From: a bacterium
GTDB lineage: Bacteria; Patescibacteriota; Minisyncoccia; Phycocordibacterales; UBA9973
Direction of reading: 5' to 3'
NCBI GenBank assembly: GCA_037130655.1
Contig: JBAXSP010000003.1
Span: 4,684-68,683 of the forward strand
DNA length: 64,000 nt
Notes under the pieces: generated by a model
Told to the model about the DNA's origin: nothing
What the model saw: the letters and a program-made list of their open reading frames with translations, nothing else
The model's database searches: none
Translations under genes and position numbers: made by a program
Shown here: positions 498 through 63,562 of the stretch, one piece after another
How positions within the stretch are numbered: the first letter of the stretch is position 1
Layout of the letters: the number at the start of each line of letters is the position of its first letter

Positions 498-1802
498 ATG
501 CTTAGAAAAATACTTCGATTATTAATACTGCTCGCATTGATTGGTGCTTTGGTGCTCGGTATTTATTATTTCACTTCGACTCGTAATCAACCAACAATTC
601 CTGGTGAACAAAAGAAAAGTTTTTCTTTCAAAGATTTTTTGCCATTTGGTACAAAAAAGACAACTACAACAGAAGACACAAACGGTTCTATTGAAATACC
701 AACAGATTTAGCTGCGCCGGTTGTTGAAGCACCTAAAAAGATGTACCGTCTTTCAAATAGAAAGGTGGTTGCTATTGTTCCATACCAAAGAGAGCGAATG
801 ATTGATATACCTGTTGCGACTTCGACAACAAAGACCAAGATGCCACAACCAACCAAAGAAATCACCTATGATTATGGGGTGCGGTTTTTGGAAAAAACTT
901 CAGGACTTATTTATGAAATGATGAATGCGGTACCTGGTGTTGAAAAAAGAATTTCAGACAGTGTGACCCCAACGCTTGGGGAAGGAATGATTGGTAATGA
1001 TGGTAATTCTTTGATTTCTCGGTTTTTGCGACCAGAAGACGATGCGACAATCGATACCTTTGTTGGAAATGTTATCGGTATGAGTACTCCTGCAAAAATC
1101 ATCGGTTCATTCTTGCCGAGAAATGTTGTTTCGATTAGTGTATCGCCTGATGGTAGCAAATACTTCTATCTGTATCCAATAAACGGGGGAGCTACTGGAG
1201 TAGTATCAAATTTTGTTGGAGGAAACAAGGCTACCATATTTACTTCACCGTTTACTGAGTGGGCAACTTCTTGGACAAATCAGCAGTTTATTACGGTATA
1301 TCCAAAACCGTCAGGTTTAGTTAAGAATTATGTCTATCGTGTAGATGCAAGTACTGGGGAAATGAAAAAACTTGTTGGTGGATTACCAGGACTTAGTGCA
1401 ATCATGTCACCCGATGGAACAATGGTTGCGTACTCTCATGCAAAAAACAATAGCATGGCATTGACCATCTACTCACCGGATCAAATGAAAGGAAAAGAAA
1501 CAGGATTGCAAACACTTTCAGATAAATGTGTATTTTCTCCTGATGGAAGATATCTCTATTGTGCTGTACCAAATACTGTTTCTGGTGCAACGTATCCAGA
1601 CACTTGGTATAAAGGTGAAGTTTCATTTGAGGATTCTTTTTGGAAGCTCGATGTTGCAAACCAAGCATATTATTTGATTGTTGATACAACAGAAACAGGT
1701 GACAGTGTTGATGCGACAAATCTTCAGATATCAAAAGACGGATCACTCTTGTATTTCATTAATAAAAAAGATGATACGCCGTGGGTGGTGGAGACAAGGT
1801 AA
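498..1802 (+). CDS. membrane-anchored TolB-like beta-propeller protein (PD40/WD40-like repeats)
   Basis: N-terminal TM helix LLILLALIGALVLGIYYF; recurring propeller motifs VSPDGSKYFY, MSPDGTMVAY, FSPDGRYLYC, ISKDGSLLYF. Confidence 0.5.
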   Translation: MLRKILRLLILLALIGALVLGIYYFTSTRNQPTIPGEQKKSFSFKDFLPFGTKKTTTTEDTNGSIEIPTDLAAPVVEAPKKMYRLSNRKVVAIVPYQRERMIDIPVATSTTKTKMPQPTKEITYDYGVRFLEKTSGLIYEMMNAVPGVEKRISDSVTPTLGEGMIGNDGNSLISRFLRPEDDATIDTFVGNVIGMSTPAKIIGSFLPRNVVSISVSPDGSKYFYLYPINGGATGVVSNFVGGNKATIFTSPFTEWATSWTNQQFITVYPKPSGLVKNYVYRVDASTGEMKKLVGGLPGLSAIMSPDGTMVAYSHAKNNSMALTIYSPDQMKGKETGLQTLSDKCVFSPDGRYLYCAVPNTVSGATYPDTWYKGEVSFEDSFWKLDVANQAYYLIVDTTETGDSVDATNLQISKDGSLLYFINKKDDTPWVVETR

Positions 1803-1806
1803 TGTC

Positions 1807-1943
1807 TAGTGACCAGTGACTAATGACTAATAAAACGAAATTTCTTTGTAAATTTCGTTTTATTTTTTATCAAATAAAATTTGATATTTAAATACTAAAA
1901 AGTCAACATTTTTCTGGTCATTGGTCATTGGTCATTGGTCATT
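1807..1943. repeat. palindromic element copy a: left array TGACCAG-TGACTAA-TGACTAA, terminator hairpin, AT-rich spacer, right array of 4 perfect tandem GGTCATT units (1916-1943)
   Basis: read directly; one of 4 related copies in the window (2690-2793, 40528-40561, 62834-62945). Confidence 0.7.
1833..1868 (+). terminator. rho-independent terminator after the 498-1802 gene
   Basis: stem AAACGAAATTT / AAATTTCGTTT, loop CTTTGT, followed by TATTTTTTAT. Confidence 0.7.
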
Positions 1944-1952
1944 ATTTTTGCT

Positions 1953-2705
1953 ATGATTTATCCTATGTTACACACATTTTGGATTACATTTATACATACA
2001 CCACTACACAATATATTGGCAGTTTTACTCGGAACCATTTCTTTTGGCGATCTTGGAGTTGCTATTATTCTTTTGACCGTGTTGGTCAAACTTGCACTGC
2101 TTCCGTTGGCTAAAAAATCTATCATCAGTCAGTTGAAGATGAAAAAACTTGAGCCAAAGCTCAAAGAAATTAAAACACTCTATCCAGACAAGGCGATTCA
2201 AGCGCAAAAAACAATGGAGGTATACAAAACAGAAGGAGTCAATCCTTTTTCTGGATTTCTTCTTGTGTTGATACAGCTTCCGATTTTGATAGCACTCTTT
2301 AGTCTCTTTAGAAAAGGAGTTTCTTTTGCTCCTGAATCACTATATTCATTCGTCCATGCACCGGCACATATTTCAATGAAATTTCTAGGTTTGATTGATC
2401 TTGCGAAACCAAGTATTGCACTCGCTGTGTTTGTTGGAATCACTCAATATTATTTGGCGATTTTGACTATTGGTAAAAATAGCAAACAAACAGCCGTTGC
2501 GACTGAAAACAGTAAACCGTCATTTCAGGATGAAATGGCAAAGAGTATGAATATGCAAATGCGGTATGTCATGCCAGTAATGATGGCATTCTTTGCCTAT
2601 GTTGGAACAGGTATTGTTGCACTCTATTTCCTCACCAGTAACATCATGACGTACATACAAGAATATATTATTCGTAAGAAACACAACATAATTACTAATG
2701 ACTAA
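1953..2705 (+). CDS. yidC: membrane protein insertase YidC/Oxa1 (short monoderm-type form)
   Basis: ORF-track start at 1935 is TTG; first ATG at 1953. Conserved LLPLAKKSIISQLKMKKLEPKLKEIKTLYPDK...MEVYKTEGVNPFSGFLLVLIQLPILIALF core. Last codons ITND plus stop lie inside palindromic element b. Confidence 0.85.
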   Translation: MIYPMLHTFWITFIHTPLHNILAVLLGTISFGDLGVAIILLTVLVKLALLPLAKKSIISQLKMKKLEPKLKEIKTLYPDKAIQAQKTMEVYKTEGVNPFSGFLLVLIQLPILIALFSLFRKGVSFAPESLYSFVHAPAHISMKFLGLIDLAKPSIALAVFVGITQYYLAILTIGKNSKQTAVATENSKPSFQDEMAKSMNMQMRYVMPVMMAFFAYVGTGIVALYFLTSNIMTYIQEYIIRKKHNIITND

Positions 2706-2793
2706 TTACCAATGACCAATTGTTCGAAAAAAAACGGAACCCAGTGGGTTCCGTTTTAATTAGTCATTCGTAACTGGTCATTGGTCATTACTG
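2690..2793. repeat. palindromic element copy b: heptamer arrays (..TGACTAA TTACCAA TGACCAA.. / ..TTAGTCA..CTGGTCA TTGGTCA..) flanking a bidirectional terminator
   Basis: read directly; the arms encode the C-terminal residues of both yidC (ITND*) and rnpA (VMTNDQLRMTN*). Confidence 0.7.
2731..2757. terminator. bidirectional terminator between convergent yidC and rnpA
   Basis: AAAACGGAACCC agt GGGTTCCGTTTT with A/T tracts on both sides. Confidence 0.75.
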
Positions 2794-3091
2794 TATCAAA
2801 TTCTTTTTGATACAGTTGTTTCGGTTCGTTTTTGTTTACAAATATAAAATAGTACCCAGTAGGGAATGAGTCTTTTTTCTCACGAAGGATGTTGTAGATA
2901 CTTCGTTTGATCGCATGTCTATCTACTGATTTTTTGGCAACCTTCTTTGATACAATTACAGAAAAACGGCGAGAGGTGCCGTCTTTTGTAAAGTGTGCCC
3001 GTAATATGAATGAATTACTTGGGAACGCTTTGGTCTTCTTGCTATAGGTATCAAAAAGGGCTTTTGGAATTCGCTCTTTTTTTGAAAGCAT
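2756..3091 (-). CDS. rnpA: ribonuclease P protein component
   Basis: 111 aa, basic; RnpA-like ...FPSNSFILRAHFTKDGTSRRFSVIVSKKVAKKSVDRHAIKRSIYNILRE; immediately downstream of rpmH. Confidence 0.8.
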   Translation of the reverse strand: MLSKKERIPKALFDTYSKKTKAFPSNSFILRAHFTKDGTSRRFSVIVSKKVAKKSVDRHAIKRSIYNILREKKDSFPTGYYFIFVNKNEPKQLYQKEFDTVMTNDQLRMTN

Positions 3092-3100
3092 AGGAGGAGA

Positions 3101-3250
3101 TTATTTTTGCTTTGTTACAACGGCCAATTTTGCACGTCCTTTTTGTCGGCGTCGAGCAAGTACGTTTTTACCAGTACTAGAAGCTGATCTTACAAGAAAA
3201 CCGTGAGTTTTTGCGCGTTTTCGCTTTTTTGGTTGATAGGTCTGTGACAT
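3101..3250 (-). CDS. rpmH: 50S ribosomal protein L34 (49 aa; below the ORF-track size cutoff)
   Basis: reverse-strand translation [49 protein letters not shown] is canonical L34; ATG at 3250-3248, TAA at 3103-3101. Confidence 0.85.
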
Positions 3251-3536: not shown

Positions 3537-6500
3537 ATGAATATCTTTAAGAAAATTATAGTAATCGCAACACTTTTTATTTCAGGGCTTTTTTTGATAC
3601 CAACAATTTCACAAGCGGGAATTGGTAACAATATATTTGGTAATGCCTGGAGTGACAATATTGGCTGGATTAGTTTCAATAACTGTACCAAACCAGACAC
3701 TAGTACTTGCAGTGGTTATGACTACGGAGCAAATTATGTTGGCAGTGTATGGAGTGGGTATGCCTGGAGTGATAATATTGGCTGGATCAGTTTCAATCCA
3801 AGTGATTGGGGTGCTTGTCCGCCAAGTGGTTCTTGTTCGTCGTATGCTTCATACAATAACTCTACGGCAAATACATGGGTATGGGGTAGAGCACTAAATG
3901 GTATTGGTAGTTTAGATACAGAAACTGGTGGAGACTACTACGACGGCTGGATTGCTATTTATGGAAATGATGGGAACGGTAATAGTTTTGGTCCGACAGT
4001 AAGTAATCCATATACTGCAAACTCAGGTTCACTGAGTGGATTTTATGTAAGAGATATCAAATATTCATCTGTTTCAGGTGGGCGTATAGCTGGTTCTGGA
4101 TATGCATGGGGAGGTGCCGTCATTGGTTGGATTGACTTAGCAATAGATAAATTTGGTAATACCACTGAGCTATATGCATTTGTGCCTAAGTTAATGTTAA
4201 CCGCGTCACCGCAATCTGTTTCTTCAGGAAACACCAGCACCACACTTTCTTGGTCATCACCGGATGGTACAACGTATTCATCGTGTGTCGGTCTTGGTGG
4301 TGGAAGTGATTGGAATAACACAACTCAAAGCGCAATTACTTCAGGAAACCCAACTCGAACAAAAACGAATGTGAGTGTACCAAATAGTCCAACAGTGTTT
4401 AAAATTACTTGTACTACTTCTACTGGTGTAACAGCAACTGCTGAAACAAGTGTGACTATCAATAATTGTGTAAGTGGAAATTGTCAAAACAGTATTCATC
4501 TTGATGCAAATCCAACTGTTGTGAATAGTGGAGGCACAACAAAACTTTCTTGGTACTCACCAACAAATACGGCATTTACTGGTAGTTGTACTGCTTCAGG
4601 TGGAGGCACTGATTGGAATGGAACACAATCACAACCAACAACAACTAATCCGACTCGTTCAAAATCAAGTGTGAGTGTGCCGACTAGTCCGAAAACAACT
4701 TTCAAAATTACTTGTCCGATTGCCAACGGAGGAACGGTTTCAAATACTGTTGATGTGTATGTGAACTCTTCTTCTTCAAACTTGAGTATTGTTTCTGATC
4801 CTCTTATTTCACCTGTCGGCGGCAAGATCAAATTGACTTATAGTTCACCTTCAAGTACTGCATATACTTCTTGTACAAGTATTGGTGGTGGAAGTGACTG
4901 GGATAATATAACTCAAACAGCACTTAGTGCTGGAAATAGTTACACCAAAGCAGTGAGTAATATTGTCGTACCGCAACCAAATCCTCCAGTAGGTTTTGTG
5001 ATGTACGGCATTCAATGTCAAACATCATCAGGTATCATTGACACTGCATTTACTCCGGTATATATCACGAGCACTCCATCAACACTATTACTGACAGCAA
5101 GTCCAACAACAGTACCTTCAGGAAGTACAACCAATTTGTATTGGTATTCACCAAATGCAACTAATTTTACGAGTTGTACTGCGGGAGGCGGGGGAACTGA
5201 TTGGAATGGGCAAACATTGTCTGTACCAACAACAACGACACCAAACCCAGCAATGTACGGTGTTTCTGTTCCAAATGCAAAAACAATATATACCATTAGT
5301 TGTATCGACACAGCAGGTACGACACAGACTGCTGCTGCAATGGTCACGCAAGGAACAACAAAACTAACGCTTACCGCAAATCCAACTAGTGTTTCTTCTG
5401 GTGGAACAACAGCACTTACATGGTCTGCTGCTTCAGGAACAGCTTACTCAGACTGTGTCGGTAGTGGAGGAGATTCAAACTGGAACAAGAGTCAGGGAAT
5501 ATTATCAGGAGGTACACAAAAATCTCTCTCTTCAGTTGGTGTGCCAACCTATCCAAAAACTACCTACTTTTTGACTTGTACAATCAGCGGTACATCAAAT
5601 ACCGAAGTTGCTAGTGCAGAGGTGACAATCACTCATACATTGAAAGTAAATATGAGTGCAAGTCCTGTTGCTGTGTTGTCAGGTAATTCGTCTACAATTA
5701 CTTGGAGTGTTGATAATGCAACTGCGTCAACTTCTTGTAGTGCTGGTACACCAAGTGGATGGACTAGTAGTACAAGTGTTACAGGTAGTCAGCAAGTAAA
5801 CAATATTACAACTGACAAAACATACAATCTTAATTGTTCAGATTCATACACTGGTGCAATGGCTTCTGGTTCTATAACGGTGGGAGTGTTATCGATTGAT
5901 AGTTTTTCAAAGTCAGGAACTTGTATCAATCAAGGTGTTGATGCTCGTTTGAATTGGACTGCAACAAATGCAACATCATGTACTGTTCGTTACTACAGTG
6001 GTGGATATACTGGTGGGGGTGGAGGTTTTGGTGTGGCGCAAACACCAGATAAAACATTTACTGCTTCTTCAACTGAAGCAAACTATGTAACGACCGGTGC
6101 TAGTACTGGAGACTTCACACTGACCTGTTCAAATGGATCAATCAATACAACTGAAAGCGAAACTTATATGGTTAGTGTCACACAATGTGCACCGAAGTTT
6201 TCAGTTTCATCTCTGACCACTTGTGCTTCAAGTACTGCACAGAGTTTTTATCAGGCAAGTCCTCCAAACGGAAACTATAAAGCCACAACAACGTTTGTTG
6301 CAGTACCTTCAAACGGATTTAATAGCACAATCAATCTTTCTATTCCTTCAAATGGTTACGGTGGAATTCCTTCATCTGCGCTGTCTTGGACATCATCAAG
6401 TGTTTCTTTGGTAAATGGTTCATACAAAAAGAACTTATCAATTAACTTAACAAAAACCCAATATAATACTTGGATTAATTCAGTCACCAATAAATACAAC

Positions 6501-32511: not shown

Positions 32512-33825
32512 ATGAACTTGTTTAGAAAAAAACACCATTTTAAAATAAGAACTAATGGAATTATTTCAATTAATTATTCCATTGTAATTATTTTTTCTTT
32601 GGTGTTTTTTTCTTTTTTTACTAATGTTTCATTTGTTTGGGCTCAAGATGTATTTACAAGCCCTGTTTTTACAAATTCATTAAACAATCAATCAAATGTA
32701 CAAATGTATATATCACCTAGAAATGGTAACTTTGTTACCGGTTCTATATTAGAAGTAGGTGTATACATAGATACAAAAAAAAATAGTATCAATACTGTTG
32801 ACCTAAAGGTTAATTTTGATCCAAAAAAATTAGCAGTAGCAAATCCTTCCGGTGGAAAATCTATATTTGATATTTGGGTAGAACCACCAACTTATGATAA
32901 TACAAAGGGTTTAATAACTATGAGCGGCATAATACCAGAAGGAATTGTTACTACCTCTGGACTTATCGCTAAAATGTCATTTAAAGTTCTTTCTGCTGGT
33001 TCGAGCACAATAACAATTAATAATGCTACAAATGTATATTTAAATGATGGCGCGGGAACAAAAGCAAACGTTTCTTTTGGTAGAGCTGAATTAGAATTTA
33101 CTAACCAGATTCCTGATGGGGTTGTAATACATTCAGACACGCATCCTTTTGAAGATAATTGGTATAATAATAACAATCCTATTTTTAGCTGGGATGATAA
33201 AAAAGATTCCAATGGGTATGCGACACTACTAGACAGTAATCCAAAAACAGTGCCTACAAATGAAATCACCACAAATAAGAACAACATGTCGTATACTGAC
33301 ATTGGTGATGGTACTTGGTACATGCATGTTAAGTCAAAAGAAGATCAAAGTTGGGGAAATACATCAAATTATAAAATTAATATAGATACTACTCCGCCAA
33401 AAAAATTTACTCCAACAATCAATACAATAACAGGCGATGGAAGGGATGAATACGTGTTAATGTTTGGTACAACGGATGATTTATCAGGTATCGATCATTA
33501 TGAAGTTGGTATATTAAAAAATAATCGCGACAAAAATACACTTCCTGTATTTATTCAAACAGAAAGTCCATACGTGTTACCTGTTGATAATAAAGAAAAC
33601 ATTAAAATTATAGTTAAAGCTTTTGATGTTGCTGGAAATGTAACAGAAGGATCAACGAGTTTGTACCCAAATAATAAAAATTGGTACATAGCTGGTTTGT
33701 TCTTTTTGATTTTGATACTACTTGTGTCGCACTATGTATTTGGACACCATGTCGGTCGCAATATTAAACGCGCGTATATTTTCTTTAAGAATATTTCTAA
33801 AAAAGATGAAAACAATCAATTTTAA
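32512..33825 (+). CDS. cohesin-domain type I membrane protein (cohesin protein 1)
   Basis: signal peptide; cohesin-like NGNFVTGSILEVGVYIDTKKNSINTVDLKVNFDPKKLAVANP...YDNTKG...LNDGAGT; second-ectodomain motif SGIDHYEVG..ESPYV..AFDVAGN; C-terminal TM plus basic tail. Confidence 0.6.
   Translation: MNLFRKKHHFKIRTNGIISINYSIVIIFSLVFFSFFTNVSFVWAQDVFTSPVFTNSLNNQSNVQMYISPRNGNFVTGSILEVGVYIDTKKNSINTVDLKVNFDPKKLAVANPSGGKSIFDIWVEPPTYDNTKGLITMSGIIPEGIVTTSGLIAKMSFKVLSAGSSTITINNATNVYLNDGAGTKANVSFGRAELEFTNQIPDGVVIHSDTHPFEDNWYNNNNPIFSWDDKKDSNGYATLLDSNPKTVPTNEITTNKNNMSYTDIGDGTWYMHVKSKEDQSWGNTSNYKINIDTTPPKKFTPTINTITGDGRDEYVLMFGTTDDLSGIDHYEVGILKNNRDKNTLPVFIQTESPYVLPVDNKENIKIIVKAFDVAGNVTEGSTSLYPNNKNWYIAGLFFLILILLVSHYVFGHHVGRNIKRAYIFFKNISKKDENNQF
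32538..32616 (+). repeat. 79-bp direct repeat copy 1 (encodes leader FKIRTNGIISINYSIVIIFSLVFFSF)
   Basis: 78/79 identical to 33820-33898. Confidence 0.85.
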
Positions 33826-35185
33826 AATAAGAACTAATAGAATTATTTCAATTAATTATTCCATTGTAATTATTTTTTCTTTGGTGTTTTTTTCTTTTGC
33901 TTCTGCAGATTTTACAAGTACAAGTTATGAATTAGAAAATCCATCAACAGCTGTTATTGGGGGAGGGCAATCTTCGTCTGCTAGTTTCCAATATCTCTCA
34001 AATACTGGACAACTAAACGGAGGGCAAAGCACAAGTACTTCTTTTACTCAAAATGCTGGGTTTCTTTATTTCCCCTCAGCTACTTCACCAATTGTTTCTG
34101 CAACAGCAGGTAGTACACAAGTATCGCTTACATGGACAGCATCAACAGGAATTTTTGCAAGTGTTACAAGTTATGAGGTCGGGGTGAGTACTGCTTCTAG
34201 TGGGACATATACGTATACAAATGTTGGAAATGTCTTAAGTTCAATTAAAACTGGCCTTACCAATAATACGCCATATTTTTTTAAGATACGCACCTATGCT
34301 GCAGGAATTTTATTAACAGAATCTGCCGTTGTAAGTGCGACTCCTGTTGCGAGTAGTTCAAGCTCAAGCTCAAGTTCTGGTTCAGGTGGCAGTTCTGCTG
34401 GTTCAAGTGGTAGTGTCGGATCATTTAGTATTCCTAGTTCAGTAGACGCAACAGTAAATTTTACTGGACGAGCATATCCAAATAGTTCGGTCACACTCTT
34501 AAAAGATGCGCAAATTATTGCAACTACAGTTGCAGGTTCTGATGCAAGTTTTAGTATGCAATTGAATAATTTGTCTGTGGGGACATATGTTTTTAGTGTG
34601 TATTCTACAGACAAAGATGATGTACGTTCACCACTGCAGTCTTTCCCTATAACAGTAACAGCCGGTGTCACTGTCAACGTCGGTGGAATATTTATTGCAC
34701 CAACTATTTCCGGAGATAAATCACAGGTCAAACAAGGAGATAATATTACTTTTTTTGGACAAGCGGTTCCTCAAAGTGAAGTTACAATAGCGATTCATTC
34801 TAATCAAGAAATTTTCAAAAAAATTCAAACTGATAAAAATGGAGTATATTTACAAACCGTAGATACTTCGCCACTTGAAATAGGTGGACACAGCGCAAAA
34901 TCAAAAGTTGCATTTGATGGACAAATTAGTGCATACAGTGCCGGGTATAATTTTATAGTTGGTAATGATAATATAGAAACAGATAAGAATACAAAAAAAA
35001 TAAATAAAGGAGATTTAAACGGAGATAATAAAGTGAATCTTATTGACTTTTCTATCGCGGCTTTTTGGTACAAAAAAACAAACCTTAGTGATCAAATGAA
35101 AAACTATGAAAAAACAAGACTCAATGGCGATGGTAAAATTGATATCATTGACTTTAGTATCATGGCTTATTATTGGACTGGATAA
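33806..35185 (+). CDS. secreted FN3 / Ser-rich linker / Ig-like protein with C-terminal dockerin
   Basis: ATG 33806 chosen (ORF-track 33722 overlaps upstream gene by 100 nt); FN3-like VSLTWTAS...YFFKIRTYAAG; poly-Ser; duplicated Ca-loop DLNGDNKVNLIDFSIAAFWY / RLNGDGKIDIIDFSIMAYYW at 35005-35182. Confidence 0.6.
   Translation: MKTINFKIRTNRIISINYSIVIIFSLVFFSFASADFTSTSYELENPSTAVIGGGQSSSASFQYLSNTGQLNGGQSTSTSFTQNAGFLYFPSATSPIVSATAGSTQVSLTWTASTGIFASVTSYEVGVSTASSGTYTYTNVGNVLSSIKTGLTNNTPYFFKIRTYAAGILLTESAVVSATPVASSSSSSSSSGSGGSSAGSSGSVGSFSIPSSVDATVNFTGRAYPNSSVTLLKDAQIIATTVAGSDASFSMQLNNLSVGTYVFSVYSTDKDDVRSPLQSFPITVTAGVTVNVGGIFIAPTISGDKSQVKQGDNITFFGQAVPQSEVTIAIHSNQEIFKKIQTDKNGVYLQTVDTSPLEIGGHSAKSKVAFDGQISAYSAGYNFIVGNDNIETDKNTKKINKGDLNGDNKVNLIDFSIAAFWYKKTNLSDQMKNYEKTRLNGDGKIDIIDFSIMAYYWTG
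33820..33898 (+). repeat. 79-bp direct repeat copy 2 (leader of dockerin protein)
   Basis: 78/79 identical to 32538-32616. Confidence 0.85.
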
Positions 35186-40495: not shown

Positions 40496-40527
40496 AAAAA
40501 GACGGAGCTGTAAGCTCCGTCTTTTTA
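40496..40527. terminator. bidirectional terminator
   Basis: AAAAAGACGGAGCT gta AGCTCCGTCTTTTT. Confidence 0.75.
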
Positions 40528-40561
40528 TTGGTCATTGGTCAATAGTAATTAGTCATTAATA
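40528..40561. repeat. palindromic element copy c (right array TTGGTCA TTGGTCA ATAGTAA TTAGTCA; left array decayed to ..TAG 7-nt periodicity at 40455-40495)
   Basis: read directly. Confidence 0.55.
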
Positions 40562-46022: not shown

Positions 46023-47330
46023 ATGTCGTCAAAATATAAAAACATTTTTATATTTGTATTGTTTGTTGCGATTATCGGTGTTCGGTATTTTTTCTTTCTT
46101 CCAACACCAAGTGAACATTTTTATGAGGTGATAAACAAGAAGGTAAGTCTCGATGCGAAGATTGTTAGTCAGGTAACAATGACGGCGTATGGACAGAATT
46201 TTTCGGTACAACTTCCAGATAAAAAATGGAAACTCCTAATTCGTACAAATGGAACTGATGATTTTTCATATGGCGATAAGATACATATCAATGGAGTGCT
46301 CAAAGAACCAGAACCATTTGAAACAGATCAAGGAACGACTTTTGATTACAAGACGTATCTAAAAACTGATAACACCTATTTTATTATTTCAAATGCAAAA
46401 GTTTCCGTCTTAGAAAAAGGAAAAAATGGAATCGTATTTTATTTATATCGCATTACTTCGAGTTTTGAAGAGAGTATCAATGAATTACTTCCACCAGACG
46501 AAGCAGGACTCGCAAATGGAATGCTTCTTGGTGATAAATCGGGCATCAGTCCGGAGCTTCGAAATAATTTCATCACAACCGGAACGATTCATATTGTTGC
46601 ACTGTCAGGATTCAATGTGTCAATCGTTTCAAAATACATCACGTCATTTTTCGCACTGTTGCTTCCGTTTCGTTTTGCACTCTACATCGGATTGTGTGCA
46701 ATCGGATTATTTGTAGTAATGACTGGTGCGTCTGCGACTGCAGTACGTGCTGGAGTGATGGGGGAATTGTCGGTCTTTGCATTACTTGCCGGAAGACAAT
46801 ATCAAGTTTTTCGCGGGTTGGTGATCGCGGTGCTTGTAATGTTACTCATCAATCCACTCTTAATTCATTCGGTGTCATTCCAACTTTCTGTCATTGCAAC
46901 ACTAGGCATGATTTTTATTGTGCCGATATTGGAGAGGAAATTGTGGTGGGTGACCAAGCGATTTCTACTTCGAGATACTATTGCCACGACACTGTCAGCT
47001 CAAATTGCCGTTGTCCCATTGATTCTCTATCAGATGCATCAATTTTCTGTCGTCTCATTTTTTGCAAATATTATTATCATTCCACTGGTGCCATTCGCTA
47101 TGCTTTCGGCATTTATCGCAGGAGGTCTTGGGTTATTTTTGCCGAAAGTATTGGTTGTGCCATTTTCATACATTGCATATATCTTGCATCACATCATAAT
47201 CAAAATCATCACACTCTTTGCTCAAATCCCTTTTGCTTCAGTTATTATCAATCAGGTTCCGTTATGGGTAATAGTATTGTTGTACGGAATAATTATTTGG
47301 TGGATTGTTCATAAAAATAAAAAACTCTAG
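46023..47330 (+). CDS. comEC: ComEC/Rec2 DNA-uptake channel protein (DUF4131 + competence domain, no MBL domain)
   Basis: ORF-track 46002 is TTG; ATG at 46023; polytopic; LLGDKSGISPELRNNFITTGTIHIVALSGFNVSIV competence-domain motif. Confidence 0.6.
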   Translation: MSSKYKNIFIFVLFVAIIGVRYFFFLPTPSEHFYEVINKKVSLDAKIVSQVTMTAYGQNFSVQLPDKKWKLLIRTNGTDDFSYGDKIHINGVLKEPEPFETDQGTTFDYKTYLKTDNTYFIISNAKVSVLEKGKNGIVFYLYRITSSFEESINELLPPDEAGLANGMLLGDKSGISPELRNNFITTGTIHIVALSGFNVSIVSKYITSFFALLLPFRFALYIGLCAIGLFVVMTGASATAVRAGVMGELSVFALLAGRQYQVFRGLVIAVLVMLLINPLLIHSVSFQLSVIATLGMIFIVPILERKLWWVTKRFLLRDTIATTLSAQIAVVPLILYQMHQFSVVSFFANIIIIPLVPFAMLSAFIAGGLGLFLPKVLVVPFSYIAYILHHIIIKIITLFAQIPFASVIINQVPLWVIVLLYGIIIWWIVHKNKKL

Positions 47331-47352
47331 CGTTTGCTTAGAGTTTTTTATT
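47321..47352. terminator. bidirectional terminator between comEC and sodA
   Basis: AAAAAACTCTA gcgtttgct TAGAGTTTTTTATTTTT. Confidence 0.65.
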
Positions 47353-47360
47353 TTTATGAA

Positions 47361-50217: not shown

Positions 50218-50319
50218 AAAGGTTATTATACTTATTTTTGATTTCAATACAAATTTGAAAAAAAATACCGCCAGAGTGGCGGTAAACAGCGAAGGCTTGT
50301 AGACGTGACTTGTTTCCCA

Positions 50320-50333
50320 TGACCCTAAGGTCA
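50320..50333. promoter_or_regulatory. palindrome TGACC-ctaa-GGTCA about 100 nt upstream of mscL; same half-site as the heptamer elements
   Basis: read directly; regulatory role is inferred. Confidence 0.3.
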
Positions 50334-50392
50334 AACGTTTATGTTCGTCCAAGATATTTCGGCGTCTTTGCAAGAATAACAAAGAGTTTATT

Positions 50393-50434
50393 AAAAAGAA
50401 AGCGGTGGGATATACTCCCACCGCTTTCTTTTGT
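50393..50434 (-). terminator. terminator downstream of rpmB
   Basis: AGCGGTGGGA tatact TCCCACCGCT flanked by A and T tracts. Confidence 0.7.
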
Positions 50435-53998: not shown

Positions 53999-54466
53999 AT
54001 GCGAAGAAAAGTAACAAATAGAAATATTGTAAAACCAGACCTGACTTACAACTCAGCAACATTAGGTAAGTTTATCAACTACATGATGTGGTCTGGAAAG
54101 AAAAGTGTGGCTGAAAAGATTGTGTACGGTGCGCTCGACATTATCAAAGAAAAGACTGGTAAAGAACCACTTGAAATCTTTGATGAAGCTGTTCGAAACG
54201 CTAGTCCTGCAATCGAAGTCCGTTCTCGACGTATCGGTGGTGCAAACTACCAAGTTCCTCGAGAAGTTCGACCAGAACGTCGTCAATCACTCGCATTCCG
54301 TTGGATTCGCGATGCAGCACGAGCTAAGAAAGGTATGGATACTCACAAGAAGCTTGCTGAAGAACTACTAGCAGCCGCAAACAACGAAGGCGCAGCAGTT
54401 AAGAAGAAACAAGATACTCACAAGATGGCAGAAGCCAACAAAGCGTTCGCTCACTTCGCATGGTAA
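53999..54466 (+). CDS. rpsG: 30S ribosomal protein S7
   Basis: 155 aa, ...[19 protein letters not shown]...AFRWI... Confidence 0.95.
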
Positions 54467-54512
54467 AAATAAAGACCGCCTTAGGCGGTCTTTATTTTTA
54501 CCATGCGAAGTG
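54452..54512 (+). terminator. 29-bp perfect-stem hairpin (3-nt loop) that includes the rpsG stop codon, with T-tract
   Basis: CACTTCGCATGGTAAAAATAAAGACCGCC tta GGCGGTCTTTATTTTTACCATGCGAAGTG. Confidence 0.7.
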
Positions 54513-62044: not shown

Positions 62045-62842
62045 ATGTCCGTAAAAGCGTATAATGGTCATACATTTATCAAAAAATTGTCCGTTTATTT
62101 TTCTAAAAGACATATGAATGCAGTAAAAGACATAATCAAAAAGACAAGAAAAATAGTCACTGCCATATATATGGTTTCTGATTATATGGAAGTATCAGAA
62201 CCACTTCGAAATCATTTGCGAAATATGTCCTTGAAGCTATTAACGGACACAGAATATCTCCAAAAACAAATCACGGTCCAGGGTCACAAAAATGCTGCAG
62301 ACATCAAAGATGATATGGAAAATTTGATCGCAATTCTTGAGATGACAGAACATCTCCGAATGGTTTCAAGAATGAACGCCGACATCATCACTCGAGAACT
62401 ACGTTCTATGTATATGATCATCGATCATCTACCTAAGATTAAAGGGGTTGAAAGTAGTGTGATTTCCGGATTCTCACTCCCAGATTCTTTTTTTGAAAAG
62501 ACTGAAACTGATGCTATTCAGCAATTGGTATCACAAGAAAATACTGAAAACCAACCAGTTATCATAAAGGACAAAAAGATAGTAAGTGTTCCACCTGTTA
62601 AGAAAATAGCACTACCGCAACAAAGTGGTGAGGAACGAAGAAATGAAAGAAAGACCAAAATACTTACACTTATAAAGGACAAAGGAGCTTCTGAGGGGGT
62701 GATGATCAAAGATATATCTCGTGCGTTTGCAGAGCTTTCGGAGAAAACAATTCAACGAGAATTATTTGAATTAGTTGAAAAAGGTCAGATTAAAAAAATG
62801 GGGGAGAAGCGTTGGAGTCGGTATTATCTAAATAATGACTAG
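62045..62842 (+). CDS. hypothetical protein with C-terminal winged-helix DNA-binding domain
   Basis: ORF-track 62012 is TTG; ATG 62045; C-terminus MIKDISRAFAELSEKTIQRELFELVEKGQIKKMGEKRWSRYYL; last codons N-N-D-stop lie inside element d. Confidence 0.4.
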   Translation: MSVKAYNGHTFIKKLSVYFSKRHMNAVKDIIKKTRKIVTAIYMVSDYMEVSEPLRNHLRNMSLKLLTDTEYLQKQITVQGHKNAADIKDDMENLIAILEMTEHLRMVSRMNADIITRELRSMYMIIDHLPKIKGVESSVISGFSLPDSFFEKTETDAIQQLVSQENTENQPVIIKDKKIVSVPPVKKIALPQQSGEERRNERKTKILTLIKDKGASEGVMIKDISRAFAELSEKTIQRELFELVEKGQIKKMGEKRWSRYYLNND

Positions 62843-62945
62843 TGACTAAATGACCAATGACTAATATTTCGAACAAAAGCGCGAAGCCTTCGGTTTCGCG
62901 CTTTCGAATTTACTGGTCACTAGTCATTAGTAATTGGTCACTAAC
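62834..62945. repeat. palindromic element copy d: AATGACTAGTGACTAAATGACCAATGACTAAT, terminator hairpin, TACTGGTCACTAGTCATTAGTAATTGGTCACTAAC
   Basis: read directly. Confidence 0.7.
62876..62908 (+). terminator. rho-independent terminator inside element d
   Basis: AAAGCGCGAAGCC ttc GGTTTCGCGCTTT (one G-U pair). Confidence 0.75.
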
Positions 62946-63562
62946 CCCTGTAATTTTTCGCCTTCTGATACGTCACAATTTTCAGGATAGGGTGTCGCCC
63001 GAAACTCATTTAAGTGAGATACAATTTCTAAAGACCATTGCGCAGGCGGGTAGCCGAGCATAGGAATTTTTCACCAGAAAAATATCCGCGGTCTTTAGAA
63101 ATTCGTATCGAACGGCACTTTATCCACATAGTTCACAACAGTCAGAATGCCCTTATGTATTATACTTTTTGGATAGTACCTAGGCGTGCATTTTTTGGCA
63201 GTTTATGGTACTATAAATAACGTTATGTGTGCGAGCTATCGGCGCCACATAACAACCGGTCTGATCATTGAAAACACAATACGCAGGGAATCGTGATGCC
63301 GACTTTTCTCTGTGGAATTCTGTCAAAAGAATTCTTTTTTGTTTTCAGTCTCTCACCGTGTATCGGCCATGTCGACACGGCAGATAGCTGAAAAAGCATT
63401 TCTTCAATTCGTTGAGGAGATGTATTTATCAGTTTGTTTTCCGATTATAAAGTACCTACAAAATGTTTTGTCAAAACTATTTTGTAGGCCCATATATAAG
63501 TGTGTAGAATTTCTATAGAGCTTCTACATATAAGTATATGAATTTACTCAGAATATTTTATT

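Follow-up and report, generated by a model that had tools for sequence, protein, structure and literature searches.

Four-unit heptanucleotide repeat arms around predicted terminators in a Parcubacteria genome

What are the short inverted repeats that bracket yidC in a streamlined Parcubacteria genome, and do they form a regulatory system of their own? They lie in a 64,000-nt stretch of bacterial DNA (GenBank assembly GCA_037130655.1, contig JBAXSP010000003.1, positions 4,684 to 68,683 of the forward strand; lineage Patescibacteriota, Minisyncoccia, Phycocordibacterales, UBA9973), which is called the window here and has a GC content of 38%; the homologues of its YidC carry the names Paceibacterota, Minisyncoccia or Parcubacteria. 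The initial annotation, made from the sequence alone, had reported four copies of one element, each with tandem TGACYAR heptamers, a GC-rich terminator hairpin and inverted heptamers, and had read them either as inserted or expanded repeats or as an operator array. We conclude that the arrays join a known, unexplained class of heptanucleotide repeats whose behavior resembles that of repetitive extragenic palindromic (REP) elements, and that they are not a new regulatory system. The specific explanation that we prefer, and to which we give about an even chance, is that arms of the short tandemly repeated repetitive (STRR) class were added, four units per arm and inverted, around pre-existing bidirectional terminators, and that they act in cis, if at all. 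The elements, designated a to e, and the genes that they bracket are as follows.

1800..1831, plus strand: left arm of element a, TAATGTC TAGTGAC CAGTGAC TAATGAC followed by TAA
1829..1872: predicted terminator core of element a, a 15-bp AT-rich stem (AATAAAACGAAATTT / AAATTTCGTTTTATT) and then a T-tract
1869..1913, plus strand: extra spacer of element a, with a small hairpin (ATCAAATAAAATTTGAT) at 1869-1885
1914..1944, plus strand: right arm of element a, CTG followed by three units of GTCATTG and one of GTCATTA; upstream of yidC
1965..2705, plus strand: yidC, identified by Pfam, with its start set by alignment with relatives
2689..2719, plus strand: left arm of element b, TAATTAC TAATGAC TAATTAC CAATGAC followed by CAA
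2727..2757: predicted bidirectional terminator core of element b, AAAACGGAACCC AGT GGGTTCCGTTTT
2756..3091, minus strand: rnpA, convergent with yidC, identified by Pfam
2760..2790, plus strand: right arm of element b, whose reverse complement is TAATGAC CAATGAC CAGTTAC GAATGAC followed by TAA
40493..40529: predicted bidirectional terminator core of element c, a perfect 17-bp stem
40528..40558, plus strand: sole arm of element c, whose reverse complement is TAATGAC TAATTAC TATTGAC CAATGAC followed by CAA
62833..62864, plus strand: left arm of element d, TAATGAC TAGTGAC TAAATGAC CAATGAC followed by TAA
62867..62910: core hairpin of element d, TTTCGAA ... GCGCGAAGCC TTCG GGTTTCGCGC ... TTCGAAT
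62913..62943, plus strand: right arm of element d, whose reverse complement is TAGTGAC CAATTAC TAATGAC TAGTGAC followed by CAG
L278, nt 8-38: arm of element e, ~4.5 kb before the window begins, on a separate contig of the host genome; left half of the element unassembled

The construction of the arms is nearly uniform. Seven of them lie at four loci of the window (a, b, c and d) and an eighth lies outside it, and each of the eight comprises exactly four units plus a YAR remnant. Read toward the central hairpin, the unit is YARTGAC, with a TTAC variant that is present in elements b, c, d and e. Owing to this variant, YARTKAC is a better consensus than the TGACYAR first proposed, although the heptamer arrays themselves are as initially described. 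The parts follow in the order arm, A-tract, hairpin, T-tract, inverted arm, with 46-89 nt from arm to arm in the window. This architecture is realized in elements a, b and d, which carry inverted arms on both flanks of the core hairpin, but not in element c, which has a right arm only and shows on its left side at most a weak period-7 TAG pattern that does not pair. No self-complementarity is found within a single arm; the arms are direct heptamer repeats.

Tandem Repeats Finder (TRF) detects a head-to-tail 7-nt period at all arms with 75-100% match, reporting period-7 arrays at 1800-1831, 1915-1943, 2689-2720, 2759-2789, 40527-40558 and 62834-62864. The array at 1915-1943, with 4.1 copies and 100% match, bears out the earlier statement that the right arm of element a contains four perfect GGTCATT units. 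A search for three consecutive YARTGAC units with at most two mismatches yields 14 matches in the window, all at loci a-d, and 0 in 100 shuffles, and a paired-arm pattern yields 6 matches in the window versus 0 in shuffles. When four units were required and either TGAC or TTAC was allowed, the scan of the window returned the known arms alone, every one scoring 27-28 of 28, and no decayed or degenerate extra arms; mononucleotide shuffles gave 0-3 matches at the loosest threshold.

These five heptamer loci fall within ~77 kb of the host genome, or about one locus per 15 kb. In another assembly of the same organism the arms are identical, and contigs of an independent assembly stop at arms (window positions 1835 and 1915, and the start of L278), as is expected of multi-copy repeats.

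The arms are closely tied to gene ends. Every unit read toward the hairpin carries TGA, and also TAA or TAG where Y is T. Seven leaves a remainder of 1 on division by 3, so successive units fall in successive frames, and three of them suffice to put a stop in every frame. Read outward, as (GTCAYTR)n, an arm is open in all frames. TGA is the terminal stop of 1 of the 51 window genes and never occurs in frame inside open reading frames (ORFs), and therefore reads as a stop in this organism.

The arms overwrote the last codons and stops of abutting genes, and the protein ends that the initial annotation attributed to them are confirmed. YidC ends ...NIITND*, the last seven codons (stop included) coming from the left arm of element b. 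The last 11 codons of rnpA (VMTNDQLRMTN*) are the sequence of the right arm of element b, through which rnpA reads with the help of a TGA-to-TTA variant unit. The ...NND* end and TAG stop of the gene at 62045-62842 come from the left arm of element d. In addition, the TAA stop (1800-1802) of a gene for a 434-aa protein lies in the first unit of the left arm of element a, and a 68-aa minus-strand ORF has its stop 5 nt before the arm of c. The right arm of element a and the L278 arm are the only ones that lie before a gene start, and no gene ends in either.

Could such arms be nothing special, either C-terminal coding sequence that has been conserved or a chance likeness among AT-rich intergenic stretches? 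The genome is indeed AT-rich, and gene ends can be expected to abound in TAA and TGA. However, the shuffles gave no match against the 14 observed, arms also occur where no gene ends, and the tails of orthologues, described below, are not conserved. We rejected this possibility, which we find scarcely credible.

If the arms are not ancient coding sequence, when were they gained? A sister species, represented by contig L122, has the same gene order and ~84% DNA identity (YidC 94%, the 434-aa protein 91% and RnpA 77% identical), and none of its 19 kb contains heptamer arrays. It has terminators at both sites orthologous to a and b, without heptamers. Its protein tails also differ, YidC ending KQELGITE* and RnpA ending ...EQISKTL*, so that the MTND-type tails are not shared by this relative, which lacks the repeats. 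Because a species with the same gene order has no arms at either site and has different tails, the arms appear young: from the sequence comparison, they are recent, lineage-specific additions and not conserved coding sequence, as the initial annotation had argued in calling them inserted or expanded. The canonical rpmH-rnpA-yidD-yidC order persists in more distant relatives, and they too have no heptamer arrays in 58 kb.

The two orthologous sites differ in what preceded the arms. At site b, the sister species has a 28-bp perfect palindrome whose inner hairpin is orthologous to that of element b, with two compensatory pair changes (CGGAACCC/GGGTTCCG against CGAAACAC/GTGTTTCG), and whose outer arms are AACCCTAT/ATAGGGTT where the host has heptamers. 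Therefore, the terminator predates the arms at this site. At site a, the hairpin of the sister species is unrelated to that of element a, and at sites other than b the entire intergenic segment appears to be new. Element e has its arm right beside the start of a TraG-like gene; at this point, the TraC-like and TraG genes of two relatives are 9 nt apart. A search for the left half of this element by means of the TraC-like protein found relatives alone, none with the element. We found no target-site duplication: no direct repeat is common to the two sides of element a, b or d.

Several other features of this locus were observed. In window 1965-3250, yidC has the opposite orientation to that in the canonical rpmH-rnpA-yidD-yidC operon of more distant relatives (L246 9305-10741 and L249 3126-4622); yidD is missing, and dnaA-dnaN is not adjacent. 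The arms that bracket yidC are not the cause of the inversion, because L122 has the inversion without heptamers. Directly after the right arm of element b, within rnpA coding sequence, is a hairpin with a perfect 11-bp stem (2790-2816; ACTGTATCAAA TTCTT TTTGATACAGT) that is absent from the sister species. Directly after a terminator in L122 (1606-1632) are two TAATTAC units 14 nt apart (GCTAATTAC TTCCTAC TAATTAC). TAATTAC is a variant unit of the window arms, and this pair could be a seed, a relic or a chance occurrence.

The cores around which the arms are arranged have the usual form of bidirectional intrinsic terminators, as judged from sequence. Those of elements a, b and c are perfect 12-17-bp stems between an A-tract and a T-tract at gene 3' ends; the core of element d differs, with G-U pairs in its stem and an interrupted T-tract. 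A GC-rich hairpin had been claimed for each copy, but the stem of element a is AT-rich, with 2 G-C pairs among its 15 bp. The extra spacer of element a, which is without counterpart in the other copies, probably contains the yidC promoter region. In sequence, the four internal cores are mutually unrelated.

Terminators of this kind are common in the genome. We counted about 17 perfect palindromes after gene ends in the window, the longest stems measuring 29 bp; four of these palindromes bear heptamer arms, and the stop codon normally lies within the terminator A-tract. Long perfect palindromic terminators that reach gene ends are general in both the host and the sister genome, so stem extension is a habit of the lineage. 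Some are unusually long: those at 54452-54512 and 47308-47360 in the window, and at 4324-4378 and 9295-9353 in L122, have 22-29-bp stems that extend beyond the A- and T-tracts into the flanking gene ends, and their perfection suggests copying between arms or strong selection.

RNA folding agrees with the proposal that the arms pair and extend the terminator stem. Elements a, b and d each fold into a single long hairpin around the terminator, with energies of -43.6 to -58.5 kcal/mol and z-scores of -6.8 to -11.5. Element a, which lies between two plus-strand genes, folds better on the plus strand (-58.5 kcal/mol) than on the minus strand (-40.1 kcal/mol), because all differences between its arms are G-U pairs on that strand. 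This modeled bias is suggestive of RNA-level selection, in one case only.

How might the arms act? If they have a function, they would work in cis as structure, with no dedicated protein. A transcript that ends at the core would carry the upstream arm only, and this arm would stop any ribosome 10-30 nt ahead of the hairpin. A read-through transcript with both arms would fold into a stem lengthened by ~28 bp, which could stand in the way of 3' exonucleases, invite cleavage as double-stranded RNA or offer a second chance of termination. In this way, genes that are convergent or lie downstream would be insulated, an effect comparable to that of REP elements. As to origin, slippage might duplicate units, followed by copying between the arms of a palindrome and between similar terminators, although this is the least secure step of the proposal. 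The arms may well be near-neutral passengers that are tolerated because they bring their own stop codons.

Neither the identity of the heptamer with that of cyanobacterial arrays nor the wide spread of the heptamer and its paired layout had been recognized in the initial annotation. The window heptamer, in its common form TTGGTCA/TGACCAA, is also the unit of the cyanobacterial tandem arrays known as STRRs, for which Mazel and coworkers reportedly gave TTGGTCA in 1990. Among the matches listed for three consecutive YARTGAC units in reference genomes are arrays in Nostoc, Anabaena, Microcoleus, Scytonema, Tolypothrix and other cyanobacteria, and arrays of Bacteroidota, Planctomycetota and Acidobacteriota, including Mucilaginibacter, Lewinellaceae, Pirellulales and Isosphaeraceae.

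We also scanned metagenomes for two units, 28-88 nt and two inverted units, a pattern that we estimate to occur by chance about once per 5 x 10^12 nt. The convergent paired layout is present at at least 120 metagenome loci, with GC contents of 0.38-0.71, nearly all of them intergenic. Their gene contexts include 55 co-directional, 19 convergent and 15 divergent cases, and some lie between genes of an operon, for example between two ABC ATPase genes. Upstream ORFs usually stop inside the arm or within ~20 nt of it. Four is again the commonest number of units per arm, and unit number varies among related copies. No neighboring gene family recurs at these loci except ABC ATPases, which is an effect of the size of that superfamily. 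In one common high-GC family, a variant unit is retained asymmetrically (AAGCACC against AAATCCC).

Other loci with related repeats came to light. A family of IMG/VR contigs with GC contents of 0.40-0.48 (L254, L267, L269, L272, L275, L253, L270 and L265, and, in reverse orientation, L255, L259-L261, L263, L266, L273 and L274) shares a conserved locus in which a divergent heptamer pair stands between a gene end (...ATTGAAGCNTTGGTAGC...TAG) and the sequence AAGAAATACAT...AAACCCGG. A group of phages or mobile elements of Cyanobacteria or Bacteroidota may have this site in common. At L028 5400-5622 (Victivallales) and L050 6940-7060 (Acidobacteriota), serial mosaics of the heptamers GGTCGGA, GGTCATT, GTCCACC and TTCGGGC are found, which implies that what is constant in such loci is the 7-nt period and not one sequence.

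Several of these results weigh against the explanation by repeats added around existing terminators. Inward stops are not universal: cyanobacterial paired arrays, among the matches listed, are divergent in 37 cases and convergent in 1, and pairs on viral contigs are divergent at 24 loci and convergent at 3. We therefore rejected inward all-frame stops as a universal reason for the heptamer, given that these pairs are mostly of the opposite orientation. The metagenome cores are mostly unstructured (median z about 0); terminator association is not general, and wrapping of terminators is therefore particular to the genome of the window. Nor is RNA-level selection general, since sense and antisense folding of the metagenome copies gave 30 against 23 (p = 0.36). 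Within the host itself, the fixed number of four near-perfect units in all eight arms, with no decayed copies, looks more like a module than like the product of free-running slippage; slippage alone leaves the same heptamer at five loci unexplained; and the tight 9-nt junction found in two relatives where element e lies has the appearance of an insertion site.

An alternative that accommodates much of this is a non-autonomous mobile module, resembling a REP doublet forming a hairpin (REPIN) or a miniature inverted-repeat transposable element (MITE), in which a four-heptamer arm of ~28-31 nt or the whole arm-hairpin-arm unit is copied by an enzyme encoded elsewhere. Such a module would favor terminators or bring them along, and all-frame stops facing outward would make insertion at 3' ends harmless. 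Apart from the uniform arms and the junction at element e, it would account for the sharp presence or absence of arms between host and sister species, for the unrelated hairpins of the two at site a, for the breaks of Logan contigs of the same genome at arms, and for the asymmetric variant unit of the high-GC family, which is kept as it would be in dispersed homologous copies. Moreover, four loci in high-GC metagenomes (L137 3580-3920, L172 14250-14580, L182 630-980 and L198 1680-2020) carry copies of a MITE-like element of ~280 bp in which outer inverted repeats (CACTGCCGTYGAATTAAG) enclose an AATGACC-heptamer palindrome and a conserved core, whereas flanks and unit number differ.

However, elements a, b and d lack target-site duplications, the cores of the copies are mutually unrelated, and at site b only the flanks of an orthologous core have changed. 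No transposase, REP-associated tyrosine transposase (RAYT) or reverse transcriptase was found in the 64-kb window, and ABC ATPases aside, no gene family accompanies the metagenome copies. We consider a mobile module possible, though rather improbable. A classic MITE was rejected on the grounds of nonhomologous cores and missing target-site duplications. Thus, the suggested likeness to REP elements and bacterial interspersed mosaic elements (BIMEs) is a fair functional analogy, and that to MITEs fails on the same two points and on the orthologous hairpin at b.

A second alternative is that the arms are protein-binding arrays, with one subunit or dimer per 7-bp heptad and four per arm, serving as a roadblock terminator, a nucleoid or partition site, or an operator; a variant would have an RNA binder with 7-nt periodicity, like HutP. 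A precedent is the omega repressor of plasmid pSM19035, a ribbon-helix-helix protein whose targets are arrays of WATCACW heptads, either direct or inverted. TGAC is strongly conserved within units, the arrangement has two-fold symmetry, and the same heptamer recurs across many phyla. Four units per arm are constant here and modal both in the metagenome copies and in Xanthomonas (PMC4692102), and for paired arrays in Geobacter, sites of a global regulator have been proposed (Aklujkar et al., PMC2700814). Beside element d is a gene for a 265-aa protein with a weak match to a DeoR-like winged helix (E = 0.047).

The placement of the arms does not fit this idea well. Instead of lying at promoters, they are found at 3' ends and partly within genes; arm-to-arm distance is variable (46-89 nt in the window and 28-88 nt elsewhere); the relative orientation of arms flips between lineages; and the sites are missing from the sister species even though the flanking genes are kept. 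The several unrelated heptamers of cyanobacterial arrays would each need a protein of their own. The window yielded no candidate gene, whether for a ribbon-helix-helix protein or for another, and has no evident regulator or transposase gene. We consider binding arrays unlikely, and on the grounds of position, spacing and absence from the sister species, the operator array for a dimeric regulator envisaged in the initial annotation is not upheld. The TGACC-N4-GGTCA palindrome at 50320-50333, cited there as a related site, does exist. However, it is a lone small hairpin in a leader-like RNA and not a heptamer array.

The explanation by added STRR-class arms places the elements among repeats that have been described in other bacteria. 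In the summary of Mrazek (2007) that is given in PMC4679880, heptamers are the commonest long simple sequence repeats in bacteria, and polymerase slippage is proposed as their cause. The 7-bp STRRs of Nostoc form hairpins (PMC2670836), and cyanobacterial STRRs share with the window arms tandem 7-nt units, the same heptamer, intergenic positions, multiple loci and pairs that are often capable of forming hairpins (PMC2670836). They differ in that cyanobacterial arrays reach 30 units, whereas the window arms are short and fixed at four, and in that the window arms converge on a terminator, unlike the predominantly divergent cyanobacterial pairs. Also, the host of the window has a reduced candidate-phyla genome, in which, unlike in cyanobacterial STRR hosts, repeats are not expected.

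Xanthomonas GGGAATC arrays are similar in layout, being mostly of four units, intergenic and variable between close species, with 70-75 convergent inverted pairs on opposite strands per genome (Rehm et al. 2015, PMC4692102). That heptamer is G-rich and quadruplex-forming, however, and a terminator core is not reported for it (PMC4692102). Between two Xanthomonas species, 83% of the repeats are conserved in position (PMC4692102), compared with none of the window arms at two comparable sites. Geobacter metallireducens also has four or five tandem 7-8-nt units, mostly in opposite-strand pairs and at many loci (Aklujkar 2009, PMC2700814), but its units (MTYCTGA, GTTGCTYN and GGACCGG) are different, are read as regulator sites and are not described as associated with terminators. 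TAACTGA repeats likewise form a heptamer with TAA and TGA and are intergenic, in sets of 2-6 copies; they differ in the heptamer itself and in being almost always direct and just upstream of start codons, whereas the window arms surround terminators (PMC4679880). Their patchy spread over Beggiatoaceae, Cyanobacteria and Bacteroidetes has been taken to suggest horizontal spread, with no known mechanism (MacGregor 2015, PMC4679880).

REP, BIME and REPIN elements of Enterobacteria and Pseudomonas (PMC3116915) resemble the window elements in forming long hairpins from inverted doublets, in lying at gene 3' ends or between operon genes, and in being lineage specific. REP-type elements are thought to stabilize or terminate transcripts (PMC3116915). 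The REP unit is itself an imperfect palindrome, in contrast to the tandem arms of the window without self-complementarity (PMC3116915), and the window elements have a full predicted terminator as spacer and no RAYT found in the 64 kb. By analogy, REPINs are the closest mobile counterpart (PMC3116915).

DNA uptake sequences were a further candidate, and ComEC and type IV pilus genes are present in the host. In Neisseria and Haemophilus, these sequences form inverted pairs in terminators downstream of genes, about once per kb, and are shared by relatives. The window arms are likewise short conserved words in inverted pairs at terminators, but they occur at about one locus per 15 kb and are absent from the 19 kb of the sister species. 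This idea and others (CRISPR-like repeats, attC-like sites and toxin cleavage sites) were dropped on grounds of density, conservation or sequence.

Some additional features of the window were also recorded. No Rfam family was found at the elements, in the window or in two ORF-free stretches, and no tRNA was found in the search. Between the rpmB terminator and mscL on the minus strand is a ~140-nt segment (50255-50395) that includes the TGACC-N4-GGTCA hairpin and, immediately ahead of mscL, ends in a hairpin and U-tract of its own. No Rfam family matches it, and its fold z-score is only -2.3; it looks like a leader, an attenuator or a small RNA. Downstream of element d, ~700 nt (62950-63560; L277 4011-4732) contain no called gene and no ORF of more than 70 aa and are locally richer in GC. 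Even a permissive threshold gave no Rfam match for this stretch, which may be an undescribed structured RNA or the long leader of the following gene, which encodes an 1121-aa protein. A 13-nt tandem repeat (AATTATTCCAATT, 2.5 copies) occurs at 32559-32592 and again at 33841-33874, before two neighboring genes for cohesin/dockerin-domain proteins; its identity at both points to a recent local duplication.

The record of heptanucleotide repeats in cyanobacteria goes back to 1990. One heptamer, in one four-plus-four inverted layout, occurs both in a streamlined Parcubacteria genome and at at least 120 metagenome loci across a wide range of GC content. Moreover, the arms here are superimposed on terminators, with the older state visible in the sister species, such that the gain is recent and, at one site, the terminator was not replaced. 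A bolder idea, which we regard as doubtful, is that the arm (four AATGACY units, one of them variant) is a module that spreads horizontally across phyla, its hairpin being recognized by a conserved enzyme or heptad-binding protein, and that it homes to terminators and other intergenic hairpins. If true, the arms would represent a new, REPIN-like class of mobile DNA made up of heptamers, and the 35-year-old puzzle of cyanobacterial STRRs would be explained; the protein would then be most simply sought in a tiny candidate-phyla genome that had only just been invaded.

The protein C-termini that the arms have rewritten will be taken for genuine tails by gene callers and in comparative analyses. 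If a protein or enzyme stands behind the pattern, a genome of ~1 Mb would be a good place to look for it. If there is none, these elements would be a clear example of stop-carrying repeats that colonize gene ends harmlessly.

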